A stretch of 57,125 nucleotides of DNA from Kiritimatiellia bacterium (GCA_035449085.1 DAOTKE010000002.1:1-57125); one strand, 5' to 3'. Positions 15,601 to 57,125 are shown, counted from the stretch's first letter. The notes: generated by a model from the sequence alone, not told the origin. Numbers and translations: made by a program.

Positions 15601-16190
15601 TGTGCTGGAGCATAGATGCCGACCATCGCGCCCGCCGCAAACTGATTTGCGGAATGGCCCAAGGCACTCGCCAGATCCGCACCCTGCTCAAAAGCCACTC
15701 CCGCGCCTGCACCGACACTCATAGTGCCTCCCAACGCATGAAGCAGACTCAGATAGCCACTTTGCACATCAAGCGCGCCGGTAAACGCATTGTTGACAAT
15801 CAGATGTCCGCCGCCTGTCTTGCTGACTCCACCGGCACCGGTCAGCGACTCGGATATTTTGGCGGTGCAGTGATCCGCCACACTGATCAGTGTGGGCGCC
15901 CCCGTCATCTCCAGCGCGCCATCGTTGTCGGCATCGGCGACCGCGTAGCCGTCAACCTCGAACGTCATGCTGCTCACGGTCAAAGCCGCGCCGACCTCGA
16001 CTGTTTCGCCGCTACCGCCGAAGACGGCGCTGTTGCCATTGGTCCAGACCGTGCCGCCCTCCCAGTTGGCGTTTTCCAGATTCCAAATATTATTGGCATC
16101 CGCGGCATTCCACCTCTGTTCAATCGCCTGTGCATCGAGAGAAGTGGCAATGATCAGTATTGCCGAGACCATTTGACACCGAGTTTTCAT
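12648..16190 (-). CDS. large secreted autotransporter-associated beta-strand repeat protein (adhesin-like, no barrel domain seen)
   Basis: Signal peptide MKTRCQMVSAILIIATSLDAQA (ATG 16190, AGGAG upstream). Gly/Thr/Asn-rich beta-strand repeats throughout. W..ANWEGG head motif. C-terminal tail GGTCLSVR. Confidence 0.85.
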   Translation of the reverse strand: MKTRCQMVSAILIIATSLDAQAIEQRWNAADANNIWNLENANWEGGTVWTNGNSAVFGGSGETVEVGAALTVSSMTFEVDGYAVADADNDGALEMTGAPTLISVADHCTAKISESLTGAGGVSKTGGGHLIVNNAFTGALDVQSGYLSLLHALGGTMSVGAGAGVAFEQGADLASALGHSANQFAAGAMVGIYAPAHVVTNPAMDAINFGDQRFLKLGNGTLLIQRPLRSLASVTAGIEVVEGILFIREGTTTSDYMIPAGTPIRVHDGATLHISLQQQAEYDFEKPLFLSGNYSSDSAVKGALYIYRDAITINLNAPITLLDATKIKAYSSISTVNFNAPIIGSGNLIIGGGGAGPAHQQTLNFNVASTFDGDVILQNENTCNAFFNWHVDNALPATAILSVGGNETARTTELDLRGFTQQTAGVADAPRKISIVRDFVNSAETPATLELNVAADHDLSFTGKFRDTINVVKRGIGIQRLLGDGSDWNGTLFIEEGVVWIGSNTVVNTDVRVFDGGQIIPLDTNVNVRHVTLSGLGNAVGRGALLFENDKHDTWNGDITIDGYARIGAYTGGIMSKTINGVIAGSGTLNIWAGGGALNHENVYVITKPATFKGAVVLDASSGASLTLKLSGADNILPDAVPVRFNASWSQAFCRLDLMGTSAQRVGALISAGKAVQCRAVVNSVADTTSTLTINTLGGTAKFEGVIGESGICVSPGAVDLVKEGPGAQIFIKGSPFTWIDNTSVGTNVVNANVIVNNGALGLSGTDILSADKTVTVHAGGALLAPNQATLDALRADARFTIHAASPVGLYDAWDVTAADSDRAFYYSGHALIDTDNSAALPNGLILAGGVVRMGLTGAAGDSVFGPVDAPLILNGTTIKNNSNAPVLSADRTITVNQGGVAFEAGGSQTLSVLSRLTGSGPVNINCDNGTVILANTANDYSGGTVVGVQWEGYTGNAATLKLGAPEVIPHGAGKGDLSLENSAVLDLNGFDETVNGFNSQSASVLITNSAAPVATLTVGADDADGSYSGAIGGLVALVKIGAGTQILAGVCGSLADTVIEGGTLALVGNCSVASKKLLVKRGGTLELSHAAVFGGSASQTRLYAGIDTSTQGEQAKIKIPAGVTVTVLHFAIDGVFKTAGTWGATGSGADNIDDTVFTGGGMLTVLETGPAGGTCLSVR

Positions 16191-16270
16191 ACGATGACTC
16201 CTGGTTGAAAATGAACAACCTATGACATGAGCACCGCGCAACGTTATAAAAAATTAAATCGCATCATCTT

Positions 16271-16456: not shown

Positions 16457-17335
16457 TTACGGAGCGCGGGAGCTTGCGCCCGCTTTCACCGGCGGCGGGG
16501 TGCGCCCGAGTTGCGCGAGCACGCGTTTGAGCGCGTGCCAGACCTCGGTCTTGGCGCGCTTGAGGCCTGCGGCATCGCCCAGCGATTCAAACCGCAGAAT
16601 ATAGGCGGGGTGGTAGGTCGGCATCACAGGAATACCCTCATAGCGGGTCCAATGCCCTTGCAGGCGCGTGACGCCGACCTGCGTTTCCAGCAGGCCGCGG
16701 ATCGCCGTCCCCCCCAGCAACACGATGGTTTTGGGCTGCACGATGCGGATCTGCTCGCGCAGGAAGGGCAGGCACGCCCGCATCTCGTCGGCCTCGGGCG
16801 TGCGGTTACCCGGCGGACGGCACTTGCAGATGTTCGCGATGAACACGTCGTCGCGCGTGTACCCCATCGCCGCAATCATCTTGGTCAGAAACTGGCCGGC
16901 CGCGCCGACAAACGCCAGGCCCTCGCGGTCTTCGTCCGCTCCAGGTGCTTCACCGATGAACATCACGTCCGGCGAGAACGGGTTTCCCTGCCCCGGCACG
17001 CAGCGGTTGCGCTGTTGGCGCAGGACGCACGCCTCGCACGCCTCGATACGCGCGGCGATCTCGGCCAGTGCCTCACGCCGCTGCTCCAGCGTGCGGAGAG
17101 CGGGCTCAGTGGATGGGATCGTGAAGGTTGCTGTGGACGGGGCGGGTGTCGCGGCGGGACGTTGCGCGGCGGGTGCTGCCGCCGGTGTAGGCGCACCGCG
17201 CGACGCTCCGCCCGCTTTGCGAGGCGCCAGATCACGGATCACCTCGGGGGCGACCTGCACCGAACGCACGCCCAACTCTTTGAGCAGCGTCAGATGGTCG
17301 GCCAGCCCGTCGATGACCTCGGTCCAGTCGGACAT
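16457..17335 (-). CDS. uracil-DNA glycosylase, family 4 (Fe-S type) with Ala/Pro-rich N-terminal extension
   Basis: Motif A FIGEAPGADED, motif B HPAYILR, Cys cluster CEACVL...C. Start ATG 17335 (or 17353). The rest of ORF 16457..17848 overlaps galE out of frame. Confidence 0.85.
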   Translation of the reverse strand: MSDWTEVIDGLADHLTLLKELGVRSVQVAPEVIRDLAPRKAGGASRGAPTPAAAPAAQRPAATPAPSTATFTIPSTEPALRTLEQRREALAEIAARIEACEACVLRQQRNRCVPGQGNPFSPDVMFIGEAPGADEDREGLAFVGAAGQFLTKMIAAMGYTRDDVFIANICKCRPPGNRTPEADEMRACLPFLREQIRIVQPKTIVLLGGTAIRGLLETQVGVTRLQGHWTRYEGIPVMPTYHPAYILRFESLGDAAGLKRAKTEVWHALKRVLAQLGRTPPPVKAGASSRAP

Positions 17336-17339
17336 CACG

Positions 17340-18362
17340 TCATGCCTTTGCATAACCGTTGGGGTTCTGAGACTGCCAGCGCCAGGCGTCTTCGCACATG
17401 ACGCGCAGGTCGCGTTCGGCGCGCCAGCCCAGTTCGCGGGCGGCCTTCGAAGGGTCGGCCCAGCACTCGGCCACATCGCCGGGGCGGCGGGGTTTGATCG
17501 TGTAGGGGATCTTGCGTCCTGACGCCTGTTCAAACGCGGCGACCACCTCCAGCACGCTCGACCCCCTGCCGGTCCCGAGATTGTAGACCGCGAGACCGGG
17601 CTTCGATGGCAATTTGTCCAGCGCCTTGAGATGGCCGAGCGCAAGATCGACCACGTGGATGTAGTCGCGGACGCCGGTGCCGTCGGGCGTCGGGTAGTCG
17701 TTGCCGAAGACCGACAGGCTCGGGAGACGTCCGACCGCCACCTGCGCCACAAAGGGCAGAAGGTTGTTGGGGATGCCGGCGGGGTCTTCGCCGATCCGGC
17801 CGCTGGGATGCGCCCCGATCGGGTTGAAGTAGCGCAGCAGGATGACATTCCAGTCGGGGTCGGCCTTCTGCACGTCGCGGAGAATCTGCTCCATCATCAG
17901 CTTCGACCAGCCGTACGGGTTGGTCGCGCCGGGCGTGGGGAAATCCTCGCGGATCGGCACCGACGCGGGATCGCCGTAGACGGTGGCGGAGGAGCTGAAC
18001 ACGAGATTGCGGCAACCTGCGGCGGCCATCGCCTCGCACAGCGTGATCGTTCCCGTGATGTTGTTCCCGTAGTAGGCCAGCGGGATGCGCACCGACTCTC
18101 CGACCGCCTTGAGCGCGGCGAAATGAATCACGGCGTCGATGGGGCCTTCCGCCTGAAAAACGTGGCCAAGCGCCGCCCGGTCCCGGATGTCGACCTGGCG
18201 GAACGATACCGCCTTGCCGGTAATCTCGGCCACACGGCACAGACTTTCCTGACTGCTGTTGCAGAGGTTATCGACCACCGCGACCGCATGTCCGGCGTTC
18301 AACAATTCAACGATCGTATGGCTGCCGATGAATCCGGCACCGCCCGTGACTAAAACTTTCAT
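17340..18362 (-). CDS. galE: UDP-glucose 4-epimerase
   Basis: [15 protein letters not shown] Rossmann motif, catalytic Y-x-x-x-K (YGWSK), full-length similarity pattern to GalE. Confidence 0.92.
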
Positions 18363-18571
18363 GGGAATCCTTTTTGAAAACAAGTCCCCAGTTTAGCGCA
18401 ATCCACAGTGAAAACAACCGCGAAGTTACCTCCCCGCTTCAACTCGGCGGCATGTTCACTCCTCCGCCACGGTCATTATTTGACGCGTCACATTATTCCG
18501 GGCCCGAAAAGCGGCCGGAGGTTCGCGGGTGGCCAATGGCCGACAGATCCGTAACCAAACGGCGGTAGAGG

Positions 18572-19138: not shown

Positions 19139-19536
19139 GATGCGCCGGTATTCACTCCTGCCCCGTCCTCAAAATGCAGCAGGAGCCACAGCTCGAACTT
19201 TGGATTGCTGACCGCCAGCCCCCTTTTGACAACCTCTTTGGTCTGATCGACAACCCAGTCGTGCAACTCCTTCAATTGCGCATCGGCCCACCGGTCTTTA
19301 TCGACAACCAGCCAGGCTTCATCACCCTCACGCATACTCTCGCGGTCGATGCGTCCTTTCATCCGCTTCAGCACGTCGCGCGGAGAACTCTTGCCCTTCG
19401 CGCGCAGGCACTCCACCTTGAGAGTCTGACAATCAAAAATGTCGAAATAGCCCGGCTCCGTCACGGCACCCTCCACCGCGATCAGATAGAGCCGTCCATA
19501 TCGTCTGACTCCATAAGGTCTTGTGAACCGGGACAT
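19069..19536 (-). CDS. RloB-like (Toprim-like) protein, AbiLii/AriB-like partner
   Basis: 155 aa. Motifs LIAVEGAVTEPGYF, WLVVDKD and VSNPKFELWLLLHF. Its ATG overlaps the upstream ATPase stop (TAATG). Confidence 0.8.
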   Translation of the reverse strand: MSRFTRPYGVRRYGRLYLIAVEGAVTEPGYFDIFDCQTLKVECLRAKGKSSPRDVLKRMKGRIDRESMREGDEAWLVVDKDRWADAQLKELHDWVVDQTKEVVKRGLAVSNPKFELWLLLHFEDGAGVNTGASCSNALGRHLPGYDKRVQDGVFT

Positions 19537-20885
19537 TACTTACACACCCTCCGTGACACCCCCTCGGCCTCTCTGAAACGGACCATCGGCCGGATGCGCG
19601 GCACGCCGCCGAGCCGCCCTTGCAGGTAACTCTTGCGCACGTCCTTGTCGTAGCGGATATCCGAATTGAACTCGCTGAACGCCACCAGACTGGACGCGCC
19701 GTGCCGGTCGCGCTCCACCACCCACATCTCGTCACGCCGCAACAGGTCCTGATCCATCAGCAGCACGTCATGCGTGGTCAGCAGCACCTGCGCCCGGCTC
19801 TCGGCGCCGCAACAGTCGAGGTATGCCTCCATCAACTGCCGGGTCAAAAGCGCATGCAAGCTGCGGTCCAGCTCGTCGATCACGAACACCTTCTTCGCGC
19901 CCAAAGCCGAGGCTCCCAGGAAAGCCGGCAAGAGGTCGATGACGCGCTGCGAACCGTCCGACTCGCTGGCCATGTCGAACTTCACATCGCCCCCGCCTTT
20001 TTTTGCATGGTACGTCACCAACTTGCGGGCAGATAGCTCTGCCCCCCGTCGGACCACCACATACCGCTCGTTCAACGGCTCATGCCGGATCCTGATCGTT
20101 CCGCCGTCGGGCAGTTCTTTCTGGATCTTCTCCCGCAGGTCATCCGGAATCGGTATGTTCGCGAACGGCAGCTCGTCCCCCCCCAGATGGCTGATCCCCG
20201 TGTCCAAAGCCGGCAACAGCTTGTTCATGGTCTCGCAAAGGGGCGAATTCTCATCCAAAAACAGTTCGAACGGGTCAAACCGCGTGTCCGGTGCAACCAG
20301 TTCCAGAGCATCCTTGAACCAGAGGTAAACAGGCCTGAACTGCGGCCCCTTCTGCAGGACCGAATTCGTCAGGAAAAGCTGGTTGTCCTGCGTGCCCTTG
20401 AAGGCGAACTCCAGAAACTTCTTGTCCACCAGCGCAGACGCGAAGTCCACTTTCCCGTCCTTGCGGTGGTAGAGCACCTTGTCGGCCGTGCGCCCCATCC
20501 TCACGAGTTTCTCCTCGATCACGGTCTTCGCCGTGACCGCGAAACTGAACTCGTACATCACTTCTTCGACAAGAATCTGGAACAGGAACCGGCACGGACG
20601 CCGGGCCGCATCGTCGTCGAGCCTGAACGGCTGGACAGCAATGGGAACCTCCGGTTGGGTGCCTTTGACAACCAGTTCCTTCGCGAAGTGGATCGCCTTG
20701 AAGAAATTCGACTTGCCCGAGGCGTTGCCGCCGTAGAACGCCGCGATCGGCAACACTTTGGCCGGAAAGTACTTCGGCAAACGCGTGATGCGTTCGCTAT
20801 GCTGCCGCTCCTTGCTCGCCAGCATCGTAAACACAGCCCGGTCCCGGAAAGACATCCAGTTCTCGACCTCGACTCTGACCAACAT
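19536..20885 (-). CDS. AAA/ABC-type ATPase (AAA_21/RloA/AbiLi-like)
   Basis: Start MLVRVEVENWMSF with GAGGTG 4-5 nt upstream. Walker A GGNASGKSNF. Walker B/D-loop region VFVIDELDRSLHALL. The ORF track start 20987 is probably too long. Confidence 0.85.
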   Translation of the reverse strand: MLVRVEVENWMSFRDRAVFTMLASKERQHSERITRLPKYFPAKVLPIAAFYGGNASGKSNFFKAIHFAKELVVKGTQPEVPIAVQPFRLDDDAARRPCRFLFQILVEEVMYEFSFAVTAKTVIEEKLVRMGRTADKVLYHRKDGKVDFASALVDKKFLEFAFKGTQDNQLFLTNSVLQKGPQFRPVYLWFKDALELVAPDTRFDPFELFLDENSPLCETMNKLLPALDTGISHLGGDELPFANIPIPDDLREKIQKELPDGGTIRIRHEPLNERYVVVRRGAELSARKLVTYHAKKGGGDVKFDMASESDGSQRVIDLLPAFLGASALGAKKVFVIDELDRSLHALLTRQLMEAYLDCCGAESRAQVLLTTHDVLLMDQDLLRRDEMWVVERDRHGASSLVAFSEFNSDIRYDKDVRKSYLQGRLGGVPRIRPMVRFREAEGVSRRVCK

Positions 20886-21119
20886 ATCCCACCTCACATG
20901 ACTCAATAAGCCCGATGTTTGACCGTGAATATACTGCTTTTTCTCAAAATTGTCCGTTCCAAAGAGATAATATCTCATTAACAGCAACTTTTTGCATTTC
21001 GCGGTAAAGTTGTTTTTGAAAATCCGTACTCAGTATGCAACAAGAGTCTGACCTGTTCATCAACCGAACCTCGTGGTTTGGTTTGATAGGGTCGCAACAA
21101 GACAAAAAGAGGAGTAGAA

Positions 21120-22056: not shown

Positions 22057-22143
22057 AGGAAACACCTCTTTCAGTAAATCACCGTGATTTTATTACAGGG
22101 GTGTCGGTCAACGCAAGCGGCAATTTGACCGCGCGCAAGCCCG

Positions 22144-22950
22144 GTGAAGTGCAAAATAAAACGCACGCTTTTGGAAAAACAGAAAAAAGGGTGTATGGGT
22201 GAGAGGAAGCCCCGGGGTCCGGGAAGCCCGGAGGGCTTTCCGGGGGGGCTGACGCAGCCATGCCCCCAGGGGCGTCGGCCCGAGAAAAAGGAGTGCCCCA
22301 AGGGCCGGATTTTGGTTCTTGGGAAACACCGCTCTTCGGTCAGCCGCGAATACCGCAGGGGGAAGACCGTGAACCGGGACAGCCAGTTGAGGGAGTTCCC
22401 AGTCTATTCGGCCCAGAAAGCGCAGGAGGCCGCGGGCCAAGCGGCCCTGAACAAGGGGCCCCGCCCGCGGCTGACCACGGGAATCGCCGAACGGATCCGT
22501 GACCTGATCCTGCGGGAGCGCCTGTCGCCGTACGCCGCCGTCATGAGACTGCGCGCGTGCGGTGACCTGCCGTGGGTGCCGTGCGAACGGTCGGTCTACT
22601 ATGCGCTCGACGACGGCCTGATCGGCGTGGCCAGGTCGCAGCTGCCCTACAGGCCGGCGGGCAAACGGCGCAAACGGTCGGGCGTGCGCATGGCCTACAC
22701 CAACGCCAGGGGCAGGCCCATCACCGAACGCCCCCCGGGCGCTGAGGACCGGAGCGAGTACGGGCACTGGGAGGCGGATACCGTCCGCATCGTCCGCCGC
22801 TTCATCCCCAAAGGCGCCGACATCTCGAAGTTCACGCGGGCGCAAGTCCAAGCCATCGAGGACTGGATCAACGCCCTGCCGCGCAAAGTGCTCGACGGCC
22901 TTTCCGCCGCGGAGATGGTCAAACGCCACTTCGAGGAGAACGTCGCATGA
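22144..22950 (+). pseudogene. IS30-family transposase remnant with internal deletion of the DDE core
   Basis: N-terminal and linker IS30 landmarks (SSVSREYRRG, YSAQKAQ, GHWEADTV) run directly into the C-terminal landmark RRFIPKGADIS...INALPRKVL. The segment that should carry the 2nd D and the E is missing. No inverted repeats identified. Confidence 0.75.
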
Positions 22951-23051
22951 AGATCGTAGATCCATTCTTCCGACTGCGTGCATTTATTATTGCAAGTCAG
23001 GCCTCTGACTGGAAGTCAAGAGGTTACGACTTGGAACCCGAAACCGCGCCA

Positions 23052-25178
23052 TCAGGATGCCTGCCGCACGATCCGATCCGTCACGAGCTTGCGGAAGTCG
23101 GGCGAGAGGTTGGCGAAGTAGGCCGTGAAGCCGGTCACGCGCACGATCAGATCGGGAAACGCCTCTGGATTTTTGCTCGCCTCCAGGATCTGCTGCGCGT
23201 CCACGATGTTGATGTTCATGAGCGTCCCGCCCATCGCGAAATGCGAGCGGATCAGCGCTTTCAGGCAGGATGCCGCCTGCGCGTTGTCCAGACTCCCGAA
23301 GTCCACTTCCAACTGCAGCGGCGCGGTGTTGCCGTATCCCGGCTGCACGGACGCCACCGCCGCGGCCATCGCCGTGACCGCCCCGTCACGCCGGAAGCCG
23401 ACGCTGGGATTCGCGCCCTGCGAGATCGGCTCGCCCGCATACCGACCGTTCGGCAACGCACCCACGCTCTTGCCGAGACGCACCGTGTCCGCCCACGAGA
23501 AGAGCCCCGGGATCAAGACGATCGGCTTGACGAACGGAATGTTTTTGGCCTCCGCCCGCACCTTGTCGCTGAAGTCGCGCGTGATCCGCTGCGCCCAAGC
23601 GTCGCCGCGCTCGGAATTGCCGAATTTATCCGACAGCGACAACAGCTTTTGCATCTGCGGCGCGTCTTTGAAATTGCGCTCGGTCGCGCGGAACACATCG
23701 TCGAAGGTCAGGAGCCTCTCGCGCTCGACCCGCTGCTCCAAAGCGGCGAACGAGTCCGCCACGGTCGCCAGTGCCGCGCCGTCGATTGCGAGGTTGTAGT
23801 ACTGCGCCCCGCCATGCGAGGCGTCCAAGCCCGTCTCGATCGGACCGACCGACAGCAGGTTCAGCATGAGTTCCGGTTCGTTTTCCCACTGGTGCGCCAG
23901 ATGGAAGGCGATCCCTTGCCCCGTGATGCGGATGGCTTCCTGCAAGTGCGCCGAAAACGCCTGATACAATGCTTCGGTCGAGGCGTACTGCTTCTCTTTC
24001 CATGCGACCTCGAACACCTTGGCGAAGTTCACCTTGATCAGGTCGTTCATGCAGTACTCGAGCCCCGGCAGGCTCATCCAGTTGCAGCCCAGCGCGATCC
24101 GCCGCCGGGCCAACTCAATGGGATAGCCGTTCTTGACGAAACCGCTGCACAGCGCCGCATCGCCTGAGAAACGCGGGAAGGACTGCCGCTCTTCCACCAG
24201 GCAACGCACGCCTTCGTCGAGCAGCTTTTCCGGTAGACCGTCATGCACACGGATGGTGATGTTGCAGGTGCTTTTCAGCAGCCGCGCCGCCTTCAGAATC
24301 AGATACGACAATTCACAGGTCTGATCGGCCCCGCTCTCGTCAGGCCCACCGATCTGATAGTAGTGCGGATCGTTGAGCAAGAGGCAGAAGAGATAGAAAA
24401 CCGCGTCGTCATCGTCAATCAGCCCTGCGGCTTTGTCTCTCTCATAGTAGGGCCGCAGAAGCGTATCCAACTGCCCGCCGGCACCGTCGCGGTTATAGGT
24501 GCGCGAGGCGATATTGAACCATGCGATCCATTGGCACGCCTCGCGCATCGTTTGCGGCGGCTGCTCGATCAAGCGCGCGTTGATACACGCCAGTTCGGCC
24601 AGTCCCCGTTCCCGCGCTTCCCGCGCCGTGCGCCGGATCAGATCCTGCACACCGAGAATCGCGTCCTCCTCGGCCCGATAAAGGTCTAGACTCTCTGGGT
24701 TCGACGGCGGTGTCTGCGCGAGCCGGTCACGCACCTTGGCCAAAAGCCCGCCCCAACCGAGCCTCAGCCCGATAGAGTAGTCCGGCGCAAAGTGGGCATC
24801 CTTTCCGATGCCCGGCGTGATATCGTACTTGATCTGCCCGGGACGCAGATGACTGTAGTCAAAACCGAACGGCGACAGCTCCAGCCGATAGTGCGCGCGC
24901 ATACGCGACAGCATGAACATCCACCGCCCCGCCAGCGCGTCATTGGGATCGATGTAGACCGGATGGTGCTCCATCAGATAGCGGAAATTCGTGCCCCACG
25001 CCCGCACACCGTGAAATGAGCCGTTGTCGTCGATACAGGGCAGGGTCAGCTTCAGCGACTCCGGCGGCAGCACCCAGCCATAGTCGTCCTCGTCCATCGC
25101 GCCCAGGCGGCGGCGTTTCTCCTCAGTCTGCCGCAACTTCGCTTCGCGCAAACGCTGGATCTGTTCTGCGTATTTCAT
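23052..25178 (-). CDS. glycyl radical enzyme (PFL2/dehydratase-like fold), divergent
   Basis: 708 aa. C-terminal glycyl radical motif IVRVTGFTAYF (G683). Cys loop ALGCNWMSLPG (C365). Also FPRFSGD and ALPNGRYAGEP. Confidence 0.88.
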   Translation of the reverse strand: MKYAEQIQRLREAKLRQTEEKRRRLGAMDEDDYGWVLPPESLKLTLPCIDDNGSFHGVRAWGTNFRYLMEHHPVYIDPNDALAGRWMFMLSRMRAHYRLELSPFGFDYSHLRPGQIKYDITPGIGKDAHFAPDYSIGLRLGWGGLLAKVRDRLAQTPPSNPESLDLYRAEEDAILGVQDLIRRTAREARERGLAELACINARLIEQPPQTMREACQWIAWFNIASRTYNRDGAGGQLDTLLRPYYERDKAAGLIDDDDAVFYLFCLLLNDPHYYQIGGPDESGADQTCELSYLILKAARLLKSTCNITIRVHDGLPEKLLDEGVRCLVEERQSFPRFSGDAALCSGFVKNGYPIELARRRIALGCNWMSLPGLEYCMNDLIKVNFAKVFEVAWKEKQYASTEALYQAFSAHLQEAIRITGQGIAFHLAHQWENEPELMLNLLSVGPIETGLDASHGGAQYYNLAIDGAALATVADSFAALEQRVERERLLTFDDVFRATERNFKDAPQMQKLLSLSDKFGNSERGDAWAQRITRDFSDKVRAEAKNIPFVKPIVLIPGLFSWADTVRLGKSVGALPNGRYAGEPISQGANPSVGFRRDGAVTAMAAAVASVQPGYGNTAPLQLEVDFGSLDNAQAASCLKALIRSHFAMGGTLMNINIVDAQQILEASKNPEAFPDLIVRVTGFTAYFANLSPDFRKLVTDRIVRQAS

Positions 25179-25987
25179 ACTCTTTCCCCATCCACAAACA
25201 GCGGCATGCCCGCATCACGGACGATTCGGCGCAGGTGCTTCATGCGCTCGTCCGAAGGCGCTTGAAACGAAGGCACCTCGCGGCCCAAGGCAGCGTACTT
25301 CTCCTGGCCTAAAGGTTGATACCGCAGTAACTCGTAATACATCAACGTCTTCAGCGGCTTCAGCCGCTCGACAATCTGCGCGATGTTCGCGTCATCGTCG
25401 TTCACCCCCGCAACCAACGGCGTGCGGATGATCAGCGGAAGCCGTGCCGTTTGCACAGCGGCAAAGTTTTTCAAAATCAGCTCATTGGACACGCCCGTCG
25501 CGCGGCGGTGGCGTTCGGGATCAGCCAGCTTCAGATCCGCCATCAGTATGGACAGCAACGGAAGCACCTTCGCCAGCACTTCAGTCGGCACATGCAGGCT
25601 CGTCTCGATGGCGGCGGGGATCGCTTCCGCCCGGCACCTCTCCAGCAAAGCCAGCAGAAAATCCGGCTGACAGCAGGGCTCGCCGCCGGAGACCGTCACG
25701 CCGCCTTCCGGCGCGTAGAACGGCCGATCCTTGAGGATGACCGTCATGACCTCTTCCACCGTCCGCGCTGTGGATGTCAGGCTGCGCGCGCCGAAGCGGC
25801 ACCGCTCGGCATGCTCCGCCGAACCGCCGCATGCCCCGCAGCCCATGCACCGACTTGGATAAAACAGCGGGACGGGGCGTGCTGTCCACGTCTCAGGATT
25901 GTGACACCACGCGCAACGCAGCGGGCATCCCTGCAAGAACACGACCGTACGGATACCCGGACCGTCGTGGAACGAGCCCCGCACCAT
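25175..25987 (-). CDS. glycyl radical enzyme activating enzyme (radical SAM)
   Basis: GIRTVVFLQGCPLRCAWCHNPE (CxxxCxxC), extra Cys cluster CMGCGAC, GGEP motif. Its stop overlaps the GRE start (ATGA). Confidence 0.9.
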   Translation of the reverse strand: MVRGSFHDGPGIRTVVFLQGCPLRCAWCHNPETWTARPVPLFYPSRCMGCGACGGSAEHAERCRFGARSLTSTARTVEEVMTVILKDRPFYAPEGGVTVSGGEPCCQPDFLLALLERCRAEAIPAAIETSLHVPTEVLAKVLPLLSILMADLKLADPERHRRATGVSNELILKNFAAVQTARLPLIIRTPLVAGVNDDDANIAQIVERLKPLKTLMYYELLRYQPLGQEKYAALGREVPSFQAPSDERMKHLRRIVRDAGMPLFVDGERV

Positions 25988-26010
25988 GTCTGTCACCCAT
26001 CCCGTCACTG

Positions 26011-27195
26011 CTACGCCTCCACGGCCTTGGGGTCTTTCCCGCCGATGCCGAACAGGATGCAGGCGACCAGCGCGATCAACGCGCCCCACCCCCAAATCGC
26101 CGCCCAGTCGTACAGTTGGTCCCCCTCGCCTCGATAGGCATCACCGACAAAGCCCGCGAGTTGCGCGCCCAGGAACATGCCCACCCCGAAAATCAGCATT
26201 GAAATGAAGCTCTGGGCGCGTGCGCTCATGGCCGACGGCACCAGCCGCGCCGCATAAATGGACGCTCCTGTGACCACCAATCCATACGAAAGACCGTGAA
26301 GCAGAAGCCCCGCGATCACGACCGGTCCGTGCATACTGCCGAACGCGAAGAACCGAAGCGCCCAGACGGCCATGCCGATCATCAGAATCCGCTTCAAGCC
26401 GAGCTTGGCAATGAACCACGGCAACACGATCATCGTCAGCAATTCCGAGATCTGGCACAGCGTCATCAGCGCCGTCGGCTTCGGCATCTTGATCTCGGCC
26501 AGAAACGCATTGGTCCACGTCGTGTAGAAGGTCTTGGAGATCGTGACCAGCGGAATCGATACGGCAAACACAAGAAAAGCGGGGTCCTTCAGCAGCTTAA
26601 CGGCGGTCAGGCCGAAGATGTCCCGGCCCTCCTTGCCGGCCCCTCGCGGCGGCGTATGCGGCAGGGTCAGACAGTACACGGCCAGCACGGCCTGGGCGCC
26701 GGCAGCCAGATAAAAGAAAGCGCCGTCTTTCTCCCCGAAAAAGAACCCGACCATCAGTCCTGCGACGATCCATCCGGTCGTGCCGCCGATCATGAACCAT
26801 GAAAAACGCTCCGACTTGTCAATGTGGCGGAACACCAGATTGTTGCACAGGGACAGCGTCGGCATATAGCAGAGCGCATCGATGACGATCAGCGTCATGA
26901 GTGCCGGGAATGTGGTCTGCTGCGGCGCGAGACAGTGACAGACCGCCCCCGCCAGATGCAGCGCGGCGAGCAGGCGTTCCGTGGCAAAGAAGCGGTCCGC
27001 CACATAGCCGAGGAACAGCGGCGAGATCAGTGCGCCCAGCGCGGAGGCGCCGCAGATCCAGCCGATCTGTGCGCCGGTGAACGCCAGCGTGGCATTCATG
27101 TAACTGCTGATCGGAACAATCCACGCGCCCCAGATAAAGAACTCCAGGAACATCAACGCCATCAGCCGCAAATAATTGACCGGGGTGTTTGACAT
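26011..27195 (-). CDS. MFS transporter, nucleoside:H+ symporter (NupG/XapB/YegT)-like
   Basis: 12-TM pattern. The N-terminus LRLMALMFLEFFIWGAW...SYM...GAQIGW closely follows the NupG-family pattern. ATG 27195 lies 4 nt after the upstream stop. Confidence 0.82.
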   Translation of the reverse strand: MSNTPVNYLRLMALMFLEFFIWGAWIVPISSYMNATLAFTGAQIGWICGASALGALISPLFLGYVADRFFATERLLAALHLAGAVCHCLAPQQTTFPALMTLIVIDALCYMPTLSLCNNLVFRHIDKSERFSWFMIGGTTGWIVAGLMVGFFFGEKDGAFFYLAAGAQAVLAVYCLTLPHTPPRGAGKEGRDIFGLTAVKLLKDPAFLVFAVSIPLVTISKTFYTTWTNAFLAEIKMPKPTALMTLCQISELLTMIVLPWFIAKLGLKRILMIGMAVWALRFFAFGSMHGPVVIAGLLLHGLSYGLVVTGASIYAARLVPSAMSARAQSFISMLIFGVGMFLGAQLAGFVGDAYRGEGDQLYDWAAIWGWGALIALVACILFGIGGKDPKAVEA

Positions 27196-27199
27196 GTGA

Positions 27200-28330
27200 T
27201 CACCCCACGGTCGGATCGTTGACGGTCTCCACACGTCCGCTCGCCGCAGAGCGCAGGCCCGCGTCAAACGCCGCCGTCATCTCGAGATTGAAATCCGCGC
27301 GCAGCGTCTCATGCACCGGCTCCCCGGTTTCAAGATGATGGATAAACGCTTCGGCCAGCGTGGCGCGCCCCTTCGGCAGGGGCTCCGCCTCGAAGATTTC
27401 AACCTCATGACCGGCTCCGCGCGTGAGCTGCACCACCGGTTTCTCGCCGTAGATTTCAAAGGAGAGCGCGCCGGTCGAGCCGAAGAGCATCAGGGGCCCG
27501 GCGGTGAGGAACGTCTTGCCCAAGGTCGTCCATGAACCTTGCGCGACAGCGATGGCGCCCGGGAAACGCACGAGCATCACGCCGTTGTCGTCGGCGTCGC
27601 ACCATGCGCTGTCCAGATTGGCGCGCAGGCCCTGCGCGGAGACCGCGCGCTCGCCGGTGTACCAGCGGCCGTACATCACGCCGTAGCAGCACAGGTCGAT
27701 CATCGCGCCGCCGCCCGCCGCCTTCTGGTGCAGCCAGATCGCGGCGCGTTCCTTCTCGGTGAGCGGCTCGGCCGATTCGCTGACGCCCTTATGCGAAGCG
27801 CCCGGCCCGTACGGCCCGGAATGGCCCACGCGGTAATGGATCTCGAGCAACTTCCCGATGGTGCCCGCGTCGATCAGCGCCTTGGCCTTGCGCGCATGGG
27901 GCAGCCAGGTCGCCGGCCAGTTGACGATCAGCGTGGTGCCCGCGCCGCGGCACGCCTTGACCATCCGCTGCGCGTCGTGCAGTGAAATGGCCATCGGCTT
28001 CTCCACGCAGACATGGACGCCCGCGCGGGCGCAGGCCTCGACCACGTCAGGGTGCTGATTGTTTTCGGCATTGATGGCCACGATGTCCAGCTTCTCATGC
28101 GCCAGCATCTCGTGGTAATCCGCGTAGCACTGGGTGATGCCCGTCAGCCGCATGACATTGTTGCGGTTCCACTCGCGCGTGTACGGCACGCTTCGCAACT
28201 CCGGACACAACGGCACCGTGTCCGCGCACGCGACCATTTCCGCCTGCGGATGCGCGGCGAACAGCGACGCCACATGGTTGATGTGCGGATGTGCAAACCC
28301 GATGATTCCGACTCTGTATTTTTTGCCCAT
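27200..28330 (-). CDS. Gfo/Idh/MocA family oxidoreductase
   Basis: N-terminal Rossmann YRVGIIGFAHPHINH and a C-terminal alpha/beta domain typical of the family. Confidence 0.85.
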   Translation of the reverse strand: MGKKYRVGIIGFAHPHINHVASLFAAHPQAEMVACADTVPLCPELRSVPYTREWNRNNVMRLTGITQCYADYHEMLAHEKLDIVAINAENNQHPDVVEACARAGVHVCVEKPMAISLHDAQRMVKACRGAGTTLIVNWPATWLPHARKAKALIDAGTIGKLLEIHYRVGHSGPYGPGASHKGVSESAEPLTEKERAAIWLHQKAAGGGAMIDLCCYGVMYGRWYTGERAVSAQGLRANLDSAWCDADDNGVMLVRFPGAIAVAQGSWTTLGKTFLTAGPLMLFGSTGALSFEIYGEKPVVQLTRGAGHEVEIFEAEPLPKGRATLAEAFIHHLETGEPVHETLRADFNLEMTAAFDAGLRSAASGRVETVNDPTVG

Positions 28331-28401: not shown

Positions 28402-29523
28402 TCAGCGTTCACCATCCAGCCGCACCTCACGTCCCTCTTCCGCCGACCGGTAGACGGCCTCCAGCGCGCGGATGACGTTCAGCGCCTCCTCTTTTTTCAC
28501 GCGGATCTCCTCTTCGCCCTTGATGACCCGCATGAAATGCGCGACCTCATGCCAGTGCGCGTAGAAGGGGTGGTTCGGCTCGGGCGGCAGGATTTTCGGC
28601 GTCACGTCAACCTGGTACCGGCCCATGTTCCGAACGACGCGCAGATCCAGAGCACGCGGATCGAACGACAGCCCGCCCTCCGTGCCCATGATCATCACGC
28701 CGCCGGCACTATCGGGGACATTCGCCGCCCAGCAGACCTTGAGATGGATCGTCCCGCCGTGGTCGAGCCGCAGAAACGCGCTGGCGAAGTCCTCCACGTC
28801 AAACGTGGCGGGATTGTAAGAGGCACTCGACACGCCGCCGGCAAAGGCGCCGCTTTCGACGGATGAGGTGATCAGGTTTTCGTTGCGCGGGCCGATCTTC
28901 GAATACGTCGCGCCGGAGACCGCCACGACCTTGGGGTTCCCCATGATCCAGAGCACCATGTCCAGCATGTGCGCACCGAGATCGTACAACACGCCGCCGC
29001 CCGAGAGTTTCTTGATGTGGAACGAACCGTGGGTCGGAATGCCGCGCCGGCGCATCCGCGCCGCATCCGCGCAGTAGATGTCGCCGAGCTGTCCGTCCGC
29101 GGCGAAAGCCTTAGCGGCGGCGACCTGGTTGTAAAAGCGCATGGACTGCCCCACCAGCAGATGCCGGCCGGTCTCTTCCGCCGCCTTGAAAATGTCCGCC
29201 GCGTCTTGGCTGGTGACCGTCAGCGGTTTCTCGCAGAGCACATGCGCACCGGCGCGGAGCGCCGCCGTGGCGTGCGCCTTGTGCAGCCCGGCCGGTGTGC
29301 AGACCGACACGACATCGGGGGACAGCTCATTCAACATCCTGTCGACGTCATCATACACGCCGGGGATCGCGAATTTGCCGGCCGTCGATTGCGCACGGCT
29401 GAGATCCGCGTCCATGACCCCGACAAGCTCCACACCGCGCTGCGACTGCCAGGCCGGGATATGCGCCGAGTTGGCGATCATGCCGCAGCCGACCACGGCC
29501 ACTCTGAGTGTGCTATCCGCCAT
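28402..29523 (-). CDS. Gfo/Idh/MocA family oxidoreductase
   Basis: LRVAVVGCGMIANSAHIPAW Rossmann motif, EKP motif (LCEKPL). Confidence 0.88.
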   Translation of the reverse strand: MADSTLRVAVVGCGMIANSAHIPAWQSQRGVELVGVMDADLSRAQSTAGKFAIPGVYDDVDRMLNELSPDVVSVCTPAGLHKAHATAALRAGAHVLCEKPLTVTSQDAADIFKAAEETGRHLLVGQSMRFYNQVAAAKAFAADGQLGDIYCADAARMRRRGIPTHGSFHIKKLSGGGVLYDLGAHMLDMVLWIMGNPKVVAVSGATYSKIGPRNENLITSSVESGAFAGGVSSASYNPATFDVEDFASAFLRLDHGGTIHLKVCWAANVPDSAGGVMIMGTEGGLSFDPRALDLRVVRNMGRYQVDVTPKILPPEPNHPFYAHWHEVAHFMRVIKGEEEIRVKKEEALNVIRALEAVYRSAEEGREVRLDGER

Positions 29524-29535
29524 TGTTGCTCCTTA

Positions 29536-30777
29536 TCAGGCCTTGAGGCCGTCCAACTGCAGGTCCATCACTTCGTCCGATTTCAGAATCTCCTCCCACG
29601 TGACCAGCCGCTGCTCGTAGCCCGCCTTGCGCCCCATGATGGCGACCAGGTTGCTCTCGATGCTAGATTCGACCGTCACGTTCCGGCAGTCGCCGGAGGT
29701 GATCAGCGTGTAGAAGGTGGCGATGTTCGAGATGGCGCCGCTCTGGTACAGCGTGGTCGTTTTACCGCCTTTATACAGATTCTTGCCGAGGATCATGCAC
29801 TTGCCGCCGTATTTCGCATGGAGCCGGCCCTCCGTGCCGTAGAGCTCGACGATCTGATGTTTGTCCTGTTCGCCGACGCCATCATTGTACCGCTTGGACG
29901 TGAAGGTCACGGGCACGTTACCCGGATACTGGTATATGACGCCGAAATAGTCCCAGTTGTCGCCGACCCGGTTCAACCCCGTTCGTCCTCCGGTACCGAA
30001 GGCGCTCAGCGGCGGCTTCTGGAACATCCATTGCACCATGTCAATCGTGTGAACATTGATCTCCACCATATAGTCGCCGGACAGCGCCTTGTAGCAGAGC
30101 CAGTTCCTGAGGCGCGTCTCGGGCGAGTCCGGCCCGGCTTTATGGCCGAATTCGCCAGAGTGATTGAAAACTTCACCGAACGTGATCCGTCCCAGCGCGC
30201 CCTCATGCAGCCGTTTCACCGTCTCCTGGAAGAAGGGATCGGTACGGTGCTGGAAGTCCACGAAAACGACCTGCTTGTTCTGCATCGCCTTTTTGTTCGA
30301 CTCTGCGACGGTCCGGCATCCGGGAACGTCCACGGAGACAGGCTTGGCCGTGTAGACATGCTTGCCGGCATCCACGGCGTCGGCGATCTGCTGCGGGTGG
30401 AAGCAGGGCGGCGACTTGATGACGACGGCATCGAGATCCTGACATTCGAGCAGCCGCTGATACCCGTTCAACCCCGTGAAGCGCCGCGCGGCGCCGATGC
30501 CGTGCTTCTCGCCAAATGCGTCGACCTTATCCTGGAAGTAGTCGGCGCAGGCCGTCACCTGAAAGCCGCCGTGCGCATTGAAAAGGCTGCCGATCCAGGC
30601 ACCGCGTGAACCGCAGCCGATCAGCCCCACGTTGATCTTGCCGTTGGCCGATGCGCCGCGAACCACATGCGGTGCCACGAGCATGCCCGATAATGCCGCT
30701 GTGCTGCGGGATACGAATGTGCGCCTTGAGAATAACTCCCCCGAATCCAGTCCGGACGTCTCTGCGGTTTTTTTCAT
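29536..30777 (-). CDS. Tat-exported Gfo/Idh/MocA oxidoreductase (GH109-like architecture)
   Basis: ATG 30777 with AAGGAG upstream. Twin-arginine motif SRRTFVSRSTAALSGMLVA. Rossmann INVGLIGCGSRGAW. Confidence 0.82.
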   Translation of the reverse strand: MKKTAETSGLDSGELFSRRTFVSRSTAALSGMLVAPHVVRGASANGKINVGLIGCGSRGAWIGSLFNAHGGFQVTACADYFQDKVDAFGEKHGIGAARRFTGLNGYQRLLECQDLDAVVIKSPPCFHPQQIADAVDAGKHVYTAKPVSVDVPGCRTVAESNKKAMQNKQVVFVDFQHRTDPFFQETVKRLHEGALGRITFGEVFNHSGEFGHKAGPDSPETRLRNWLCYKALSGDYMVEINVHTIDMVQWMFQKPPLSAFGTGGRTGLNRVGDNWDYFGVIYQYPGNVPVTFTSKRYNDGVGEQDKHQIVELYGTEGRLHAKYGGKCMILGKNLYKGGKTTTLYQSGAISNIATFYTLITSGDCRNVTVESSIESNLVAIMGRKAGYEQRLVTWEEILKSDEVMDLQLDGLKA

Positions 30778-30859
30778 GAGATGAGGCTCCTTTCCCTGTG
30801 TGGTTGACCGTAATGTAGCCTGAATCGCATGGTCAAACTTGTAATCAGAGGCCTTTTTT

Positions 30860-31624
30860 ATGTATTTTATGACCATGAATCAGCAACAGTTTAAGCATGC
30901 CTTCCTGAGACGGCTTGGTGGCATCGAGGCATTTGAGCAGTTGATGGACCTGTTGCCCGACGTGGCGTTCTACGTCAAGGACAGCAAAAGCCGGTTTGTC
31001 ATGTCGAACCGGCGTCATAATGAGATCTGCCATGCGGCGTCGGAGTTGCAGGTCATCGGGAAGACCGACTATGATTTCTTCCCGAAGGATCGGGCGGATC
31101 TCTACGTGGCGCGCGACCGGCAGGTCATGGAGACCGGCATCCCCACCATCAACGTTGTCGCGCCCGCGCCCGAGGAAGAGGGCTCGAACCGCCTGATCAT
31201 CGGCAGCAAGTTCCCGTTGCGGGACCGCCAAGGGAAGATCGTCGGCGTCGCGGGCATCCATCGTTCCGTGGACGAAACGCGCGCGACACCTCAGTCTTAC
31301 GGGCCGTTTGCCAAGGCCATGCAGTACATTCACGAGCATTACCACGAGCCCCTCCACACGCAAGAGATCGCGTCGATGGTCGGACTGTCGCACCGCCAGT
31401 TCAACCGGCGTTTCCACCGCTTCTTCAACACCTCGCTCTGCCAGTACCTGATGCGGGTGCGGATCAACGCGGCGTGCCGGTTACTTGCTGAAACCGACCA
31501 GAGCGTCACCCGTATTGCCGGCGAGGTCGGCTTTTATGACCAGAGCCATTTCTCCAGAACCTTCACCCGCCTGATGGGACTCTCCCCGCTCAAATACCGC
31601 AAGCGGCATATTCCGGGGGCGTGA
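30860..31624 (+). CDS. AraC-family transcriptional regulator with N-terminal PAS-like sensor
   Basis: C-terminal AraC HTH (IAGEVGFYDQSHFSRTFTRLMGLSPLKYR). N-terminal about 130 aa is PAS-like (FYVKDSKSRFVMSN...). Divergent from the oxidoreductase/GRE operon. Confidence 0.85.
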   Translation: MYFMTMNQQQFKHAFLRRLGGIEAFEQLMDLLPDVAFYVKDSKSRFVMSNRRHNEICHAASELQVIGKTDYDFFPKDRADLYVARDRQVMETGIPTINVVAPAPEEEGSNRLIIGSKFPLRDRQGKIVGVAGIHRSVDETRATPQSYGPFAKAMQYIHEHYHEPLHTQEIASMVGLSHRQFNRRFHRFFNTSLCQYLMRVRINAACRLLAETDQSVTRIAGEVGFYDQSHFSRTFTRLMGLSPLKYRKRHIPGA

Positions 31625-37786: not shown

Positions 37787-37874
37787 AAGCCCCCTTGATA
37801 CGTTAAGCGTACCTAACATACCCGTTTCCCCGCTGTCTTACGTTCACAAAAAAGCAATTGTAATAACGTTGTAT

Positions 37875-40387: not shown

Positions 40388-40476
40388 ACCTTTCTTTCCC
40401 CCTTCATGAATCTTCATGTCTTTCATGGTTAAAACCAACCGAGCACTGCCAATCTCCACTCGCTAATCGCCACTAG

Positions 40477-56922: not shown

Positions 56923-57125
56923 ACACACATACCATCCGCCCCCTCCGCCCCGGTACATTCGGAGCGTCCAGCATGGATCACCTAGTCCCATTCATAACCG
57001 TAGCGTACCATACCCGCGATGAGAGAAAAGCAGTGAAAATAGAAATGCAATTTCATTGCATTGTTGAATTGGCAGGGCGTTTTTATTTGAACGGTTTTTG
57101 TGCGGTGAGGGATCGCATGGCGTAC

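Follow-up and report, generated by a model that had tools for sequence, protein, structure and literature searches.

Which reaction is catalysed by a glycyl radical enzyme (GRE) that carries a tryptophan at the place where known eliminases carry their catalytic glutamate? This question is raised by a gene in a 57,125-nucleotide stretch of DNA from a Kiritimatiellia bacterium (GCA_035449085.1, DAOTKE010000002.1:1-57125), which as a whole is called the window here. An earlier note on this DNA, made from the sequence alone, had described the gene product as a short, divergent GRE with a coupled activase, a Cys loop reading GCNW and an unassigned, probably non-canonical chemistry. We followed up this description by homology searches, alignments, structure prediction and a comparison of gene neighbourhoods. 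The GRE belongs to a deep, widespread and uncharacterised clade in which the catalytic loop is altered and a link to sugar dehydrogenases is conserved, and it probably performs an undescribed step in anaerobic carbohydrate breakdown.

The first step was to establish that the open reading frame (ORF) encodes a true GRE. The 708-amino-acid (aa) product has the features of the superfamily, namely a barrel domain like that of pyruvate formate lyase (PFL) and a C-terminal glycine-radical domain with RVxG. Its translation contains the motifs SFPRFSGD, ALGCNWMSLPG, GALPNGRYAGEP, ALPNGRYAGEP and IVRVTGFTAYF. The hallmarks and codon positions named in the earlier note proved exact by translation, Pfam domains and fold match: Cys365 is encoded at 24084-24086 (TGC), Trp367 at 24078-24080 (TGG) and Gly683 at 23130-23132 (GGC). 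An AlphaFold2 model (pLDDT 77.9, pTM 0.84) confirmed the fold, and Foldseek gave TM scores of 0.70-0.75 to at least ten solved GREs, including CutC, glycerol dehydratase (GD), HplG, propanediol dehydratase (PD), HypD and PflD. For residue-level comparison, the GD sequence (checked to be identical to 1r8w_A) and E. coli K-12 PflD, YbiW and PflB were aligned with 87 full-length representatives. Of the aligned representatives, 82 have Trp or Glu two residues after the catalytic Cys; these are the 24 CxW and 58 CxE representatives to which the counts below refer. Cys365, the counterpart of GD C433, of the PflD C431 equivalent and of the YbiW Cys, and Gly683 are both invariant in all 82. The window ORF is a genuine PFL-like GRE with its own activase, and it is predicted to be an oxygen-sensitive radical enzyme. 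Since Gly683 is kept and not replaced by Ala, Ser or Thr, the radical-storage residues of the aminoacyl radical enzymes (PMC13450708), the protein was rejected as a member of that group.

The activase gene lies directly upstream, with possible alternative in-frame GTG starts at 25996 and 26008, and its product has the radical SAM motif CX3CX2C at 25904-25927 (CPLRCAWC; C21/C25/C28). Its stop codon and the start codon of the GRE share the ATGA overlap that had been pointed out earlier and that is seen in GTATGAAA, and by this overlap the two genes are predicted to be translationally coupled. The protein is of PFLE_PFLC type and scores below the curated cutoffs of the choline, sulfopropanediol and hydroxyproline activase models. 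Of about 80 loci of relatives, at least 56 have an activase clustered with the GRE, and 47 have it inside the predicted operon. The ferredoxin-like insert of the window activase (residues 47-63; 25799-25849) is shortened and has four Cys (C47, C50, C53 and C63; CX2CX2CX9C), enough for one auxiliary cluster. Most relatives (L001-L086; L numbers denote loci) have eight, enough for two, and six activases from gut Verrucomicrobia or Kiritimatiellae lack the insert, like PFL-AE. The number of auxiliary clusters therefore appears to vary within one GRE family.

Does Trp367 occupy the position of the catalytic glutamate? In HMMER alignments to solved structures, GCNW falls on GCVE of CutC and PflD and on GCTE of HpsG. 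The MAFFT L-INS-i alignment with GD, PflD and YbiW equates C365 with GD C433 and W367 with GD E435. The distances from the Cys loop to the next P-G and to the following Asp (GD D447) are identical in the window GRE and GD. A mis-assigned loop was rejected because both methods agree and the region is anchored by G-C, P-G and Asp at fixed spacing; the claim that Trp replaces the loop Glu thus stands. The pattern IA[TVL]GC[NS]WM occurs in 120 of 120 relatives among the matches listed, followed nearly always by S[LM] and then P, and nearly all of these relatives also have RVTGF[ST]AYF. Because of this conservation of the loop, Trp367 is not a sequencing quirk. In contrast to this C-N-W, the 1,2-eliminases and isomerases carry CXE, a motif kept by all 13 characterised enzymes, comprising six C-O eliminases, CutC, three C-S lyases and three isomerases (PMC13450708, 2026). 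The eliminases in this set are GD, PD, HpfG, HypD, HpyG, HpzG, CutC, IslA, IseG and HpsG, the isomerases are HplG, YbiW and PflD, and the Glu of the motif contacts the substrate hydroxyl according to this superfamily review (PMC13450708). In the eliminases, it forms a hydrogen bond to this hydroxyl or deprotonates it. The earlier estimate that the protein is about 100 aa or more shorter than such enzymes is roughly correct: it is shorter by about 140 aa than D. alaskensis CutC, but only by 79 aa than GD (787 aa) and by 57 aa than PflD (765 aa). Compared with GD, about 49 aa within residues 78-139 are missing, as are the segments 229-239, 320-339 and 464-478.

To which group does such a protein belong? 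A search of 5.8 billion proteins returned 2,643 homologues of the GRE. The top eight are 77-91% identical and are followed by a very large set at 57-61% identity with lengths of 709-759 aa (mostly 715-725). They are named at most 'pyruvate formate lyase family protein', some 'formate acetyltransferase'. An exhaustive HMMER search covered 1.84 billion cluster representatives and extended the set to sequences with 23-30% identity. In a neighbour-joining tree that was rooted on PflB and has no support values, all 24 full-length CxW representatives form one clade that is sister to all sampled CxE enzymes, including PflD and YbiW, and the window GRE groups inside it. The Cys loops within this clade read GCNWM, GC[NH]W[TFSC], GCHWW, GCQWM, GCFWY and GC[QGP]W[YF]. 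The clade is defined by this analysis and is not a curated family; the window GRE shares with it the Trp at Cys+2, Asp379 and Glu436, RVTG and the deletion of the loop that bears Tyr339 in GD. One CxW representative from outside the window, P0130 (1052 aa), is an apparent activase-GRE fusion with its GRE part starting at residue 314. One of the 24 representatives matches TIGR02494 at 3.1e-91.

Comparison with the named families places the protein outside all of them. Every NCBIfam equivalog cutoff lies far above the score of the window GRE, the best model being the generic TIGR01774 (200 versus 678 bits), and none of the 24 CxW representatives reaches a cutoff. The individual scores, each against its cutoff in bits, are 149/1100 for HypD, 144/1050 for CutC (TIGR04394), 171/1000 for HpsG and 70/994 for TIGR01255. 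Membership of a named GRE family was ruled out by these cutoffs and by the tree, and the earlier view of an unassigned GRE is supported, as there is no clustering with a GRE of known function. PFL and TdcE were rejected by the TIGR01255 score and by the single Cys of G-C-N-W, compared with CCVSP in E. coli PflB. The X-succinate synthases and arylacetate decarboxylases were rejected on similarity (BSS 2.9e-13 and HPAD 6.2e-9 versus 1e-39 for the eliminases). The PDB relatives of the GRE lie at similar distances throughout (1e-39 to 1e-34). A profile of the clade likewise matches GD, CutC, PD and PflD about equally (1e-131 to 1e-130; GD best at 2.4e-131), and because of this even distance we see no solved structure from within the clade among its PDB matches. 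We found no paper on a CxW GRE family in a literature search that did not reach subscription-only papers, and the 2026 review of the superfamily lists no such enzyme (PMC13450708). Since that review already notes that whole GRE clades remain unannotated (PMC13450708), the existence of an unannotated clade is no surprise in itself. On the basis of alignment and tree, the GCNWM family is placed within a deep monophyletic CxW clade of which no member is characterised.

Relatives of the GRE are present in at least 203 species genomes in a scan of one genome per species. Their hosts include Kiritimatiellia, Victivallales, Opitutaceae, Chthoniobacteraceae, Planctomycetota, Phycisphaerae, Oscillospiraceae, Acutalibacteraceae, Bacteroidales, Marinilabiliales, Anaerolineales, Spirochaetales and Chlorobiota and thus cover the PVC phyla, Bacillota, Bacteroidota and others. 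Cultured hosts are Victivallis vadensis DSM 14823, Labilibaculum filiforme, Puteibacter caeruleilacunae and Carboxylicivirga fragile. The closest relatives, at 92-87% identity, come from Kiritimatiellia metagenome-assembled genomes from digesters.

The next question is what remains of a dehydratase active site once the loop Glu is gone. The two residues that mark the dehydratase subgroup, His164 and Asp447 of GD, have counterparts in H129 and D379. His is found at the first position in 21 of 24 CxW and 53 of 58 CxE representatives, and Asp at the second in 24 of 24 CxW versus 14 of 58 CxE representatives. An additional carboxylate, Glu436, is present in 24 of 24 CxW representatives, whereas T, S, D and L are the commonest residues here in the CxE representatives. 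Further residues differ from GD in the alignment: His281-Ser282 is replaced by Arg230-Asp231 in the GCNWM family, Tyr640 by Phe560 and Ser642 by Trp562 (Trp in 17/24 CxW representatives). The loop bearing GD Tyr339 is deleted and is gapped in 24/24 CxW representatives, and Tyr273 stands at the position of GD Asn341. Trp142, Trp367, Glu436, Asn590, Pro620 and Thr682 are invariants specific to the clade, with Thr at the Thr682 position in 22 of 24 CxW representatives. As judged by alignment, one acid and one carboxylate of the dehydratases persist in the pocket, which also gains a clade-invariant Glu elsewhere and is rich in aromatic residues. Aromatic-rich pockets are typical of sugar-binding sites.

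The genes around the GRE suggest what the substrate might be. The GRE gene closes a compact minus-strand operon of six genes that encodes, in this order, a twin-arginine-exported Gfo/Idh/MocA oxidoreductase (G1), a DgpA-like Gfo/Idh/MocA enzyme (G2), a third Gfo/Idh/MocA enzyme (G3), a NupG-like transporter of the major facilitator superfamily (MFS), the activase and the GRE. This agrees with the context of sugar dehydrogenases and a NupG-like transporter described previously: three Gfo/Idh/MocA genes and a Nuc_H_symport-type MFS gene are upstream of the GRE. Neighbouring genes overlap or are separated by at most 71 bp if the MFS gene starts at ATG 27195, its likely start 4 nt past the stop of the upstream gene, and from any of the three candidate starts of the activase. 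The six tightly packed genes leave no space for a small accessory-subunit gene such as accompanies the X-succinate synthases and arylacetate decarboxylases; small ORFs were not specifically searched. The match of G2 to DgpA covers the full length (residues 4-362 to 3-361). G1 is encoded by a long ORF (29536-30876, minus strand) with its start probably at Met34 (30777), consistent with the 411 aa of its orthologue in L001. From its export signal, G1 is probably periplasmic, and the first oxidation step would then be periplasmic as well. Periplasmic first oxidation resembles GFOR and the glycoside 3-dehydrogenases of Bacteroides. In other phyla, the paralogue that most often adjoins activase and GRE is G3. 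The Pfam scan showed no PTS, kinase or phosphate-sugar gene in the operon. A promoter and terminator scan of the operon gave no more matches than shuffled sequence.

To see whether this arrangement recurs, we clustered the ORFs of the roughly 80 loci and scanned the recurrent clusters against Pfam. Clusters 3, 5, 11, 19, 22 and 23 were dropped as apparent GC-rich artefacts, three of them lying opposite to or overlapping activase or GRE and three being Arg-rich, low-complexity translations. Gfo/Idh/MocA genes are found in 33 of the loci, with a total of 71 proteins, 43 of them inside the predicted operon and often two to four per operon. These loci span the four lineages Kiritimatiellia, Victivallales, Clostridia and Planctomycetota. 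Gfo genes beside activase and GRE that match G2 or G3 best among the window proteins occur in L052, L054 and L056 (Clostridia; G2-type 33-43%, G3-type 30-38% identity), L069 (Anaerolineales; G3-type, 53%) and L063, L065 and L072 (Planctomycetota; about 30%). Also recurrent are AGE-family epimerase/isomerases (10 loci, 7 in the predicted operon), PF12831 FAD oxidoreductases (9), NupG-like MFS transporters (8), GH130 enzymes (5), ROK kinases (5) and HpcH aldolases (4-5), in addition to LacI and AraC regulators and BNR_2 proteins in several lineages. GH92 and GH47 genes are also present, as are Sugar_tr, RhaT-like, SSF or ABC sugar transporters. In Bacteroidota, AraC, activase and GRE form a unit with a small unannotated protein and a symporter of the Sugar_tr or RhaT-like type, in this order, and GH47 sometimes comes next. 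The neighbourhoods give a consistent carbohydrate signal without a single pathway: GH130, GH92, GH47 and AGE speak for mannose or N-glycans, BNR_2, NanM-SSF, HpcH, ROK and AGE for sialic-acid-type sugars, and DgpA-like and twin-arginine Gfo proteins for 3-keto-sugars. From these recurrent partners, we link the family to the import and conversion of a carbohydrate of monosaccharide size. The proposal in the earlier note of an oxidised sugar or nucleoside as substrate is strengthened on the sugar side by the kinship of G2 with DgpA and by the Gfo genes that accompany the GRE in several phyla; its nucleoside part depends on the transporter family.

Two groups of proteins in these neighbourhoods are recorded for their own sake. 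A conserved 138-150-aa protein follows the GRE in Bacteroidota operons; it has no Pfam match and looks cupin-like by eye (DIHHxTDElFvLLeGxAvLIAA ... WHxIA). It could be a sugar isomerase, a mutarotase or an accessory subunit. DUF5696/DUF6259 proteins of about 670-700 aa (L003/L016:6654-8651 and L005:4801-6918) head operons that continue with an AGE epimerase, the GRE and the activase. The gene lies directly before AGE in L003/L016, while an SSF transporter stands between in L005. One of these operons is in a Planctomycete and one is beside SusC/SusD in a probably Bacteroidota locus. We found nothing on DUF5696/DUF6259 in the searchable literature; these proteins may be an unrecognised glycoside hydrolase family.

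Taking active site and neighbourhood together, we favour a carbohydrate-acting, C-O-cleaving radical enzyme with a relocated base, a reading to which we give about as much belief as doubt. The sugar link is supported by the match of G2 to DgpA, the twin-arginine signal of G1 and the Gfo genes in other loci. The substrate would be an imported carbohydrate, such as a pyranose-like sugar, an anhydro- or keto-sugar or a sugar acid, and the Gfo dehydrogenases would either make the GRE substrate or consume its product. The sugar, or a keto or anhydro derivative produced by periplasmic G1, would enter via the MFS transporter. The activase would install the radical on Gly683, and a thiyl radical on Cys365 would then take a hydrogen atom from the carbinol carbon. 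A carboxylate other than the loop Glu, with Asp379 as first and Glu436 as second candidate, would deprotonate the hydroxyl group, while His129 would protonate the oxygen on the adjacent carbon and the C-O bond would break. This break could be a loss of water or the opening or loss of an ether or glycosidic oxygen. Return of the hydrogen atom from Cys365 would give a deoxy-keto sugar, which G2 and G3 could then reduce or oxidise. Trp367, Trp562, Tyr273 and Phe560, which replace polar residues of GD, might stack on the sugar ring and would have no acid-base role. This scheme follows the logic of GD, PflD and CutC with the base moved. If a ketone is present beside the carbinol, as in a DgpA-type product, the acidity of the radical intermediate would be much higher and the need for a strong base smaller, and by this chemical reasoning the loss of Glu would be rationalised. 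The chemistry had been called probably non-canonical. Because the dehydratase-type His and Asp are retained, it could be an ordinary 1,2-elimination with a relocated base.

Several observations weigh against this reading of a sugar-acting eliminase. More than half of the loci lack Gfo genes, the contexts are heterogeneous, and the mixed mannose, sialic-acid and 3-keto-sugar signals single out no one substrate. The transporter family of the window hints at nucleosides. The confidence of the AlphaFold2 model is low exactly at the active-site loops 375-380 and 561-599 (pLDDT <50). Six look-ups in other CxW subclades gave three informative loci, the rest being short contigs. A class II aldolase adjoins the GRE in L090; L091 (P0171) has an Inos-1-P_synth-like gene, a short-chain dehydrogenase/reductase (SDR) epimerase, beta-helix proteins and a binding-protein-dependent ABC transporter; and in L094 (P0133) a TAXI/TRAP-type transporter adjoins the GRE. 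TAXI/TRAP transporters suggest an organic acid rather than a sugar, and across the whole CxW clade sugars may not be the only substrates. Finally, keto-sugars made by Gfo enzymes usually undergo polar beta-elimination, which leaves the need for radical chemistry unexplained.

For this last reason, a truly different reaction stays in play. It is possible, though we doubt it, that the CxW clade is a further functional class of GREs that carries out a carbohydrate transformation without a known anaerobic enzyme, using an apparatus (a Trp platform with Asp379 and Glu436) unlike that of the CXE enzymes. With the same doubt and jointly with that idea, such a transformation might split a glycosidic, ether or C-C bond of a Gfo-made keto-sugar by a radical route, or deoxygenate a pyranose or cyclitol ring. 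The stricter form of this explanation, in which the loss of Glu reflects a different mechanism and a reaction class new to GREs (a keto-sugar might be rearranged or cleaved at a C-C bond, or a glycosidic, ether or C-glycosidic bond might be split by a radical), seems unlikely to us. It would fit the position of the clade as deep sister to the sampled CxE enzymes, its specific invariant residues and the link to a DgpA-like enzyme. On the other hand, the retained dehydratase His and Asp most simply mean eliminase chemistry, and nothing points positively to any specific alternative. The DgpA family prepares C- and O-glycosides for cleavage.

An improbable but specific form of the sugar-eliminase reading names the substrate class: the GRE would be a sugar-acid dehydratase that converts an aldonate or nonulosonate-type acid to a 2-keto-3-deoxy acid, the Gfo enzymes would be aldose 1-dehydrogenases, and the HpcH/HpaI aldolase would yield pyruvate and an aldehyde. 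HpcH aldolase genes stand directly upstream of activase and GRE in L006, L015 and L027 and nearby in L022 and the window, an Amidohydro_2 gene (L003) and one Lactonase-domain ORF are found in operons, and the best NCBIfam match of G3 is xylose 1-dehydrogenase. The Amidohydro_2 fold includes sugar lactonases. Arg230 at the GD His281 position in the GCNWM family and the NanM-SSF fusion and BNR_2 sialidase-like genes of the window point the same way. Against this, the CxW clade as a whole has no conserved Arg or Lys, the known GREs for sulfonates and carboxylates retain Glu, the operon transporter is of a neutral-solute type, and polar dehydratases already catalyse the reaction easily.

We give little credence to a radical dehydratase of cyclitols of the inositol type, in which the Gfo enzymes would interconvert stereoisomers as inositol or inosose dehydrogenases and the GRE would remove a ring hydroxyl. 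The several Gfo paralogues per operon are reminiscent of inositol gene clusters, and the Inos-1-P_synth-like gene beside the GRE of the distant subclade P0171 is compatible with such a role. G1 and G3 do match inositol dehydrogenases, but weakly and generically (1e-13 to 1e-11) and no better than other Gfo proteins, while G2 is clearly DgpA-like. The glycoside hydrolases, AGE, ROK and aldose-type transporters of other loci point to aldoses, and no other inositol-pathway gene was recognised in the operons.

Very improbable is a nucleoside-acting GRE, which would apply chemistry like that of ribonucleotide reductase to a free nucleoside imported by the NupG-like carrier, for example 2'-dehydration to a 3'-keto-2'-deoxynucleoside followed by reduction by a Gfo enzyme. 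The transporter does match Nuc_H_symport, and a PNP_UDP_1 gene lies near the GRE in L006. Yet the transporter scores below the nucleoside-permease cutoff, NupG-like carriers are limited to 8 of the loci while others have Sugar_tr, RhaT-like, SSF or ABC sugar systems, and apart from PNP_UDP_1 in L006, which is outside the predicted operon, no nucleoside-metabolism gene was found, none being in the operons.

That the protein is an ordinary PFL, GD, PD, PflD, YbiW or CutC whose loop is an alignment artefact, or an inactive relic, is barely credible: database names such as 'formate acetyltransferase' and 'pyruvate formate lyase family protein' for its relatives would favour this, but all equivalog scores are far below cutoff, the Cys is single and not the Cys-Cys pair of PFL, the loop alignment is anchored on both sides, Gly, Cys and numerous further positions do not vary over hundreds of species, and a coupled activase is present.

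The positions of the features are collected in Table 1.

Table 1. Location of the GRE, its predicted catalytic residues and associated genes (window coordinates unless a locus is named)
Feature	Position	Strand	Basis and remarks
GRE, Cys-x-Trp clade (GCNWM family)	23052..25178	-	708 aa; PF02901 1.1e-77, PF01228 3.7e-13, AlphaFold2 pTM 0.84
Cys loop core Cys365-Asn366-Trp367	24078..24086	-	Predicted thiyl-radical Cys and Trp at catalytic-Glu position; aligns with GD C433-V434-E435
Thr682-Gly683 of RVTGF	23130..23135	-	Gly683, predicted glycyl radical site; Thr682 clade-specific (RVTG, not RVAG/RVSG)
His129	24792..24794	-	Aligned with GD His164; proposed acid for leaving oxygen
Asp379	24042..24044	-	Aligned with GD Asp447; candidate replacement base
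Glu436	23871..23873	-	Clade-specific invariant carboxylate at GD Leu519 position; second candidate base
GRE-activating radical SAM enzyme	25175..25987	-	270 aa from ATG; TIGR02494 271 bits, cutoff 174
NupG-like MFS importer	26011..27195	-	PF03825 (Nuc_H_symport) 2.6e-85; TIGR00889 270 bits, below cutoff of 446
G3, Gfo/Idh/MocA oxidoreductase	27200..28330	-	Pfam; best PDB match GFOR 8e-15; generic matches only
G2, DgpA-like Gfo/Idh/MocA (sugar/glycoside 3-oxidoreductase type)	28402..29523	-	DgpA 7xr9 match 2.6e-53
G1, Gfo/Idh/MocA with twin-arginine signal SRRTFVSRSTAALSG	29536..30777	-	Translation; start taken at Met34 of long ORF
Divergent AraC-family regulator with PAS sensor domain	30860..31624	+	PF12833, PF00165, PF08448
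HpcH/HpaI aldolase	37875-38702		Pfam scan of window
Cupin-like (by eye) protein of Bacteroidota operons	L078:7581-8033, L079:8596-9024, L064:12172-12600, L081:12157-12573, L086:8091-8516		

The divergent regulator gene has the same AraC/PAS arrangement in L001, L009, L010 and L012. Upstream of the operon, the window contains a glycan-use region with an aldo-keto reductase, an SDR, a Gfo-like gene, a NanM(Kelch)-SSF fusion, the HpcH/HpaI aldolase, three BNR_2 sialidase-like proteins, a protein with a sialidase lectin-insertion domain and large PATR-repeat proteins. The fusion (35069-37819, minus strand; 916 aa) joins a NanM-type Kelch domain of the N-acetylneuraminate epimerase family (about 130-411) to a sodium:solute symporter (449-852), and it is adjoined by the HpcH/HpaI aldolase and not by a NanA-type lyase. 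The BNR_2 sialidase-like cluster (38738-40459, 40477-41790, 41831-44818 and 55705-56991, all on the minus strand) includes one BNR_2 protein with an N-terminal 3-keto-disaccharide-hydrolase domain and another protein with a Vibrio sialidase lectin-insertion domain and a PATR repeat. Very large proteins of 995-1499 aa (12648-16241, 41831-44818 and 47401-51900, all on the minus strand) have the PATR autotransporter-type repeat as their sole Pfam match. Downstream of the GRE, two overlapping ORFs (22108-22983, minus; 22144-22950, plus) gave no Pfam or NCBIfam match; the plus-strand ORF (268 aa) has the GC3 of real genes (0.83 versus 0.63). Further on, a 463-aa ORF (16457-17848, minus) with a family-4 uracil-DNA glycosylase domain (about 262-441) overlaps galE (17340-18383, minus) by about 500 bp; the true start of this ORF probably lies far downstream. 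Between this region and the GRE locus is an AAA_21 ATPase gene (19536-20987). Among the window ORFs scanned, there was no microcompartment-shell domain and no 1,3-propanediol- or aldehyde-dehydrogenase-type domain. Together with the activase scores given above, this agrees with the earlier statement that the locus is not a microcompartment, choline or hydroxyproline cluster.

If the Glu of the loop is replaced in a clade present in so many genomes, this means either a second route to ketyl-type elimination or a new reaction. Members of the family are frequent among anaerobes that degrade glycans in guts, rumen, digesters and sediments, such as Kiritimatiellia, Victivallales, Verrucomicrobia, Planctomycetota, Oscillospiraceae and Bacteroidales, and their present misnaming as 'pyruvate formate lyase' distorts reconstructions of fermentation in these uncultured groups. 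From the recurrent coupling of the GRE with Gfo/Idh/MocA sugar dehydrogenases, we predict an anaerobic sugar pathway that is still undescribed. The loss of a universal Glu together with this coupling gives a specific and testable lead.

How does the enzyme compare with known systems? GD and PD are B12-independent GRE 1,2-eliminases that cleave C-O bonds. With GD (C. butyricum DhaB1, 1R8W) and PD the window GRE shares the fold (Foldseek TM 0.71), the Gly and Cys loops with equal spacing, the equivalents of His164 and Asp447 and an activase of PFLE_PFLC type, and GD is the best PDB match of the clade profile. It differs from GD by Trp367 in place of Glu435, the lost Tyr339 loop and the exchanges at His281-Ser282, Tyr640 (Phe) and Ser642 (Trp), by its shorter length and about 20% identity, and by its position outside the CxE clade.

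PflD (8.7e-39; TM 0.73) and YbiW are similar to the protein to an extent comparable to other GREs. They cleave a C-O bond next to a carbinol radical, and their Glu433 and Glu443 bind the C2-OH (PMC13450708). As 'anhydroglycolysis' isomerases acting on 1,5-anhydromannitol-6-P and 1,5-anhydroglucitol-6-P, they are the sole characterised sugar-ring GREs. In contrast to the window GRE, they lie inside the CxE radiation, carry CXE and use sugar phosphates, with PTS or aldolase genes alongside in the E. coli loci, whereas the window operon has no gene of the PTS, kinase or phosphate-sugar type. CutC is the top single-sequence PDB match (1.3e-39) and the top Foldseek match (7.5e-29), but its Glu491, which is essential in CutC (PMC13450708), has no counterpart in the window GRE, and no cut gene cluster or shell domain was seen at the window locus.

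The remaining comparison concerns a neighbour and not the GRE itself. G2 is homologous over its full length to DgpA (7XR9), the sugar 3-oxidoreductase of C-glycoside cleavage by gut bacteria. The window operon differs from the DgpA system in that it has no C-deglycosidase of the DgpB/DgpC (xylose-isomerase-like) type, and the GRE takes that place in the gene order. As far as its residues allow a comparison, the GRE would work most like a dehydratase or eliminase, without being a member of any characterised family.

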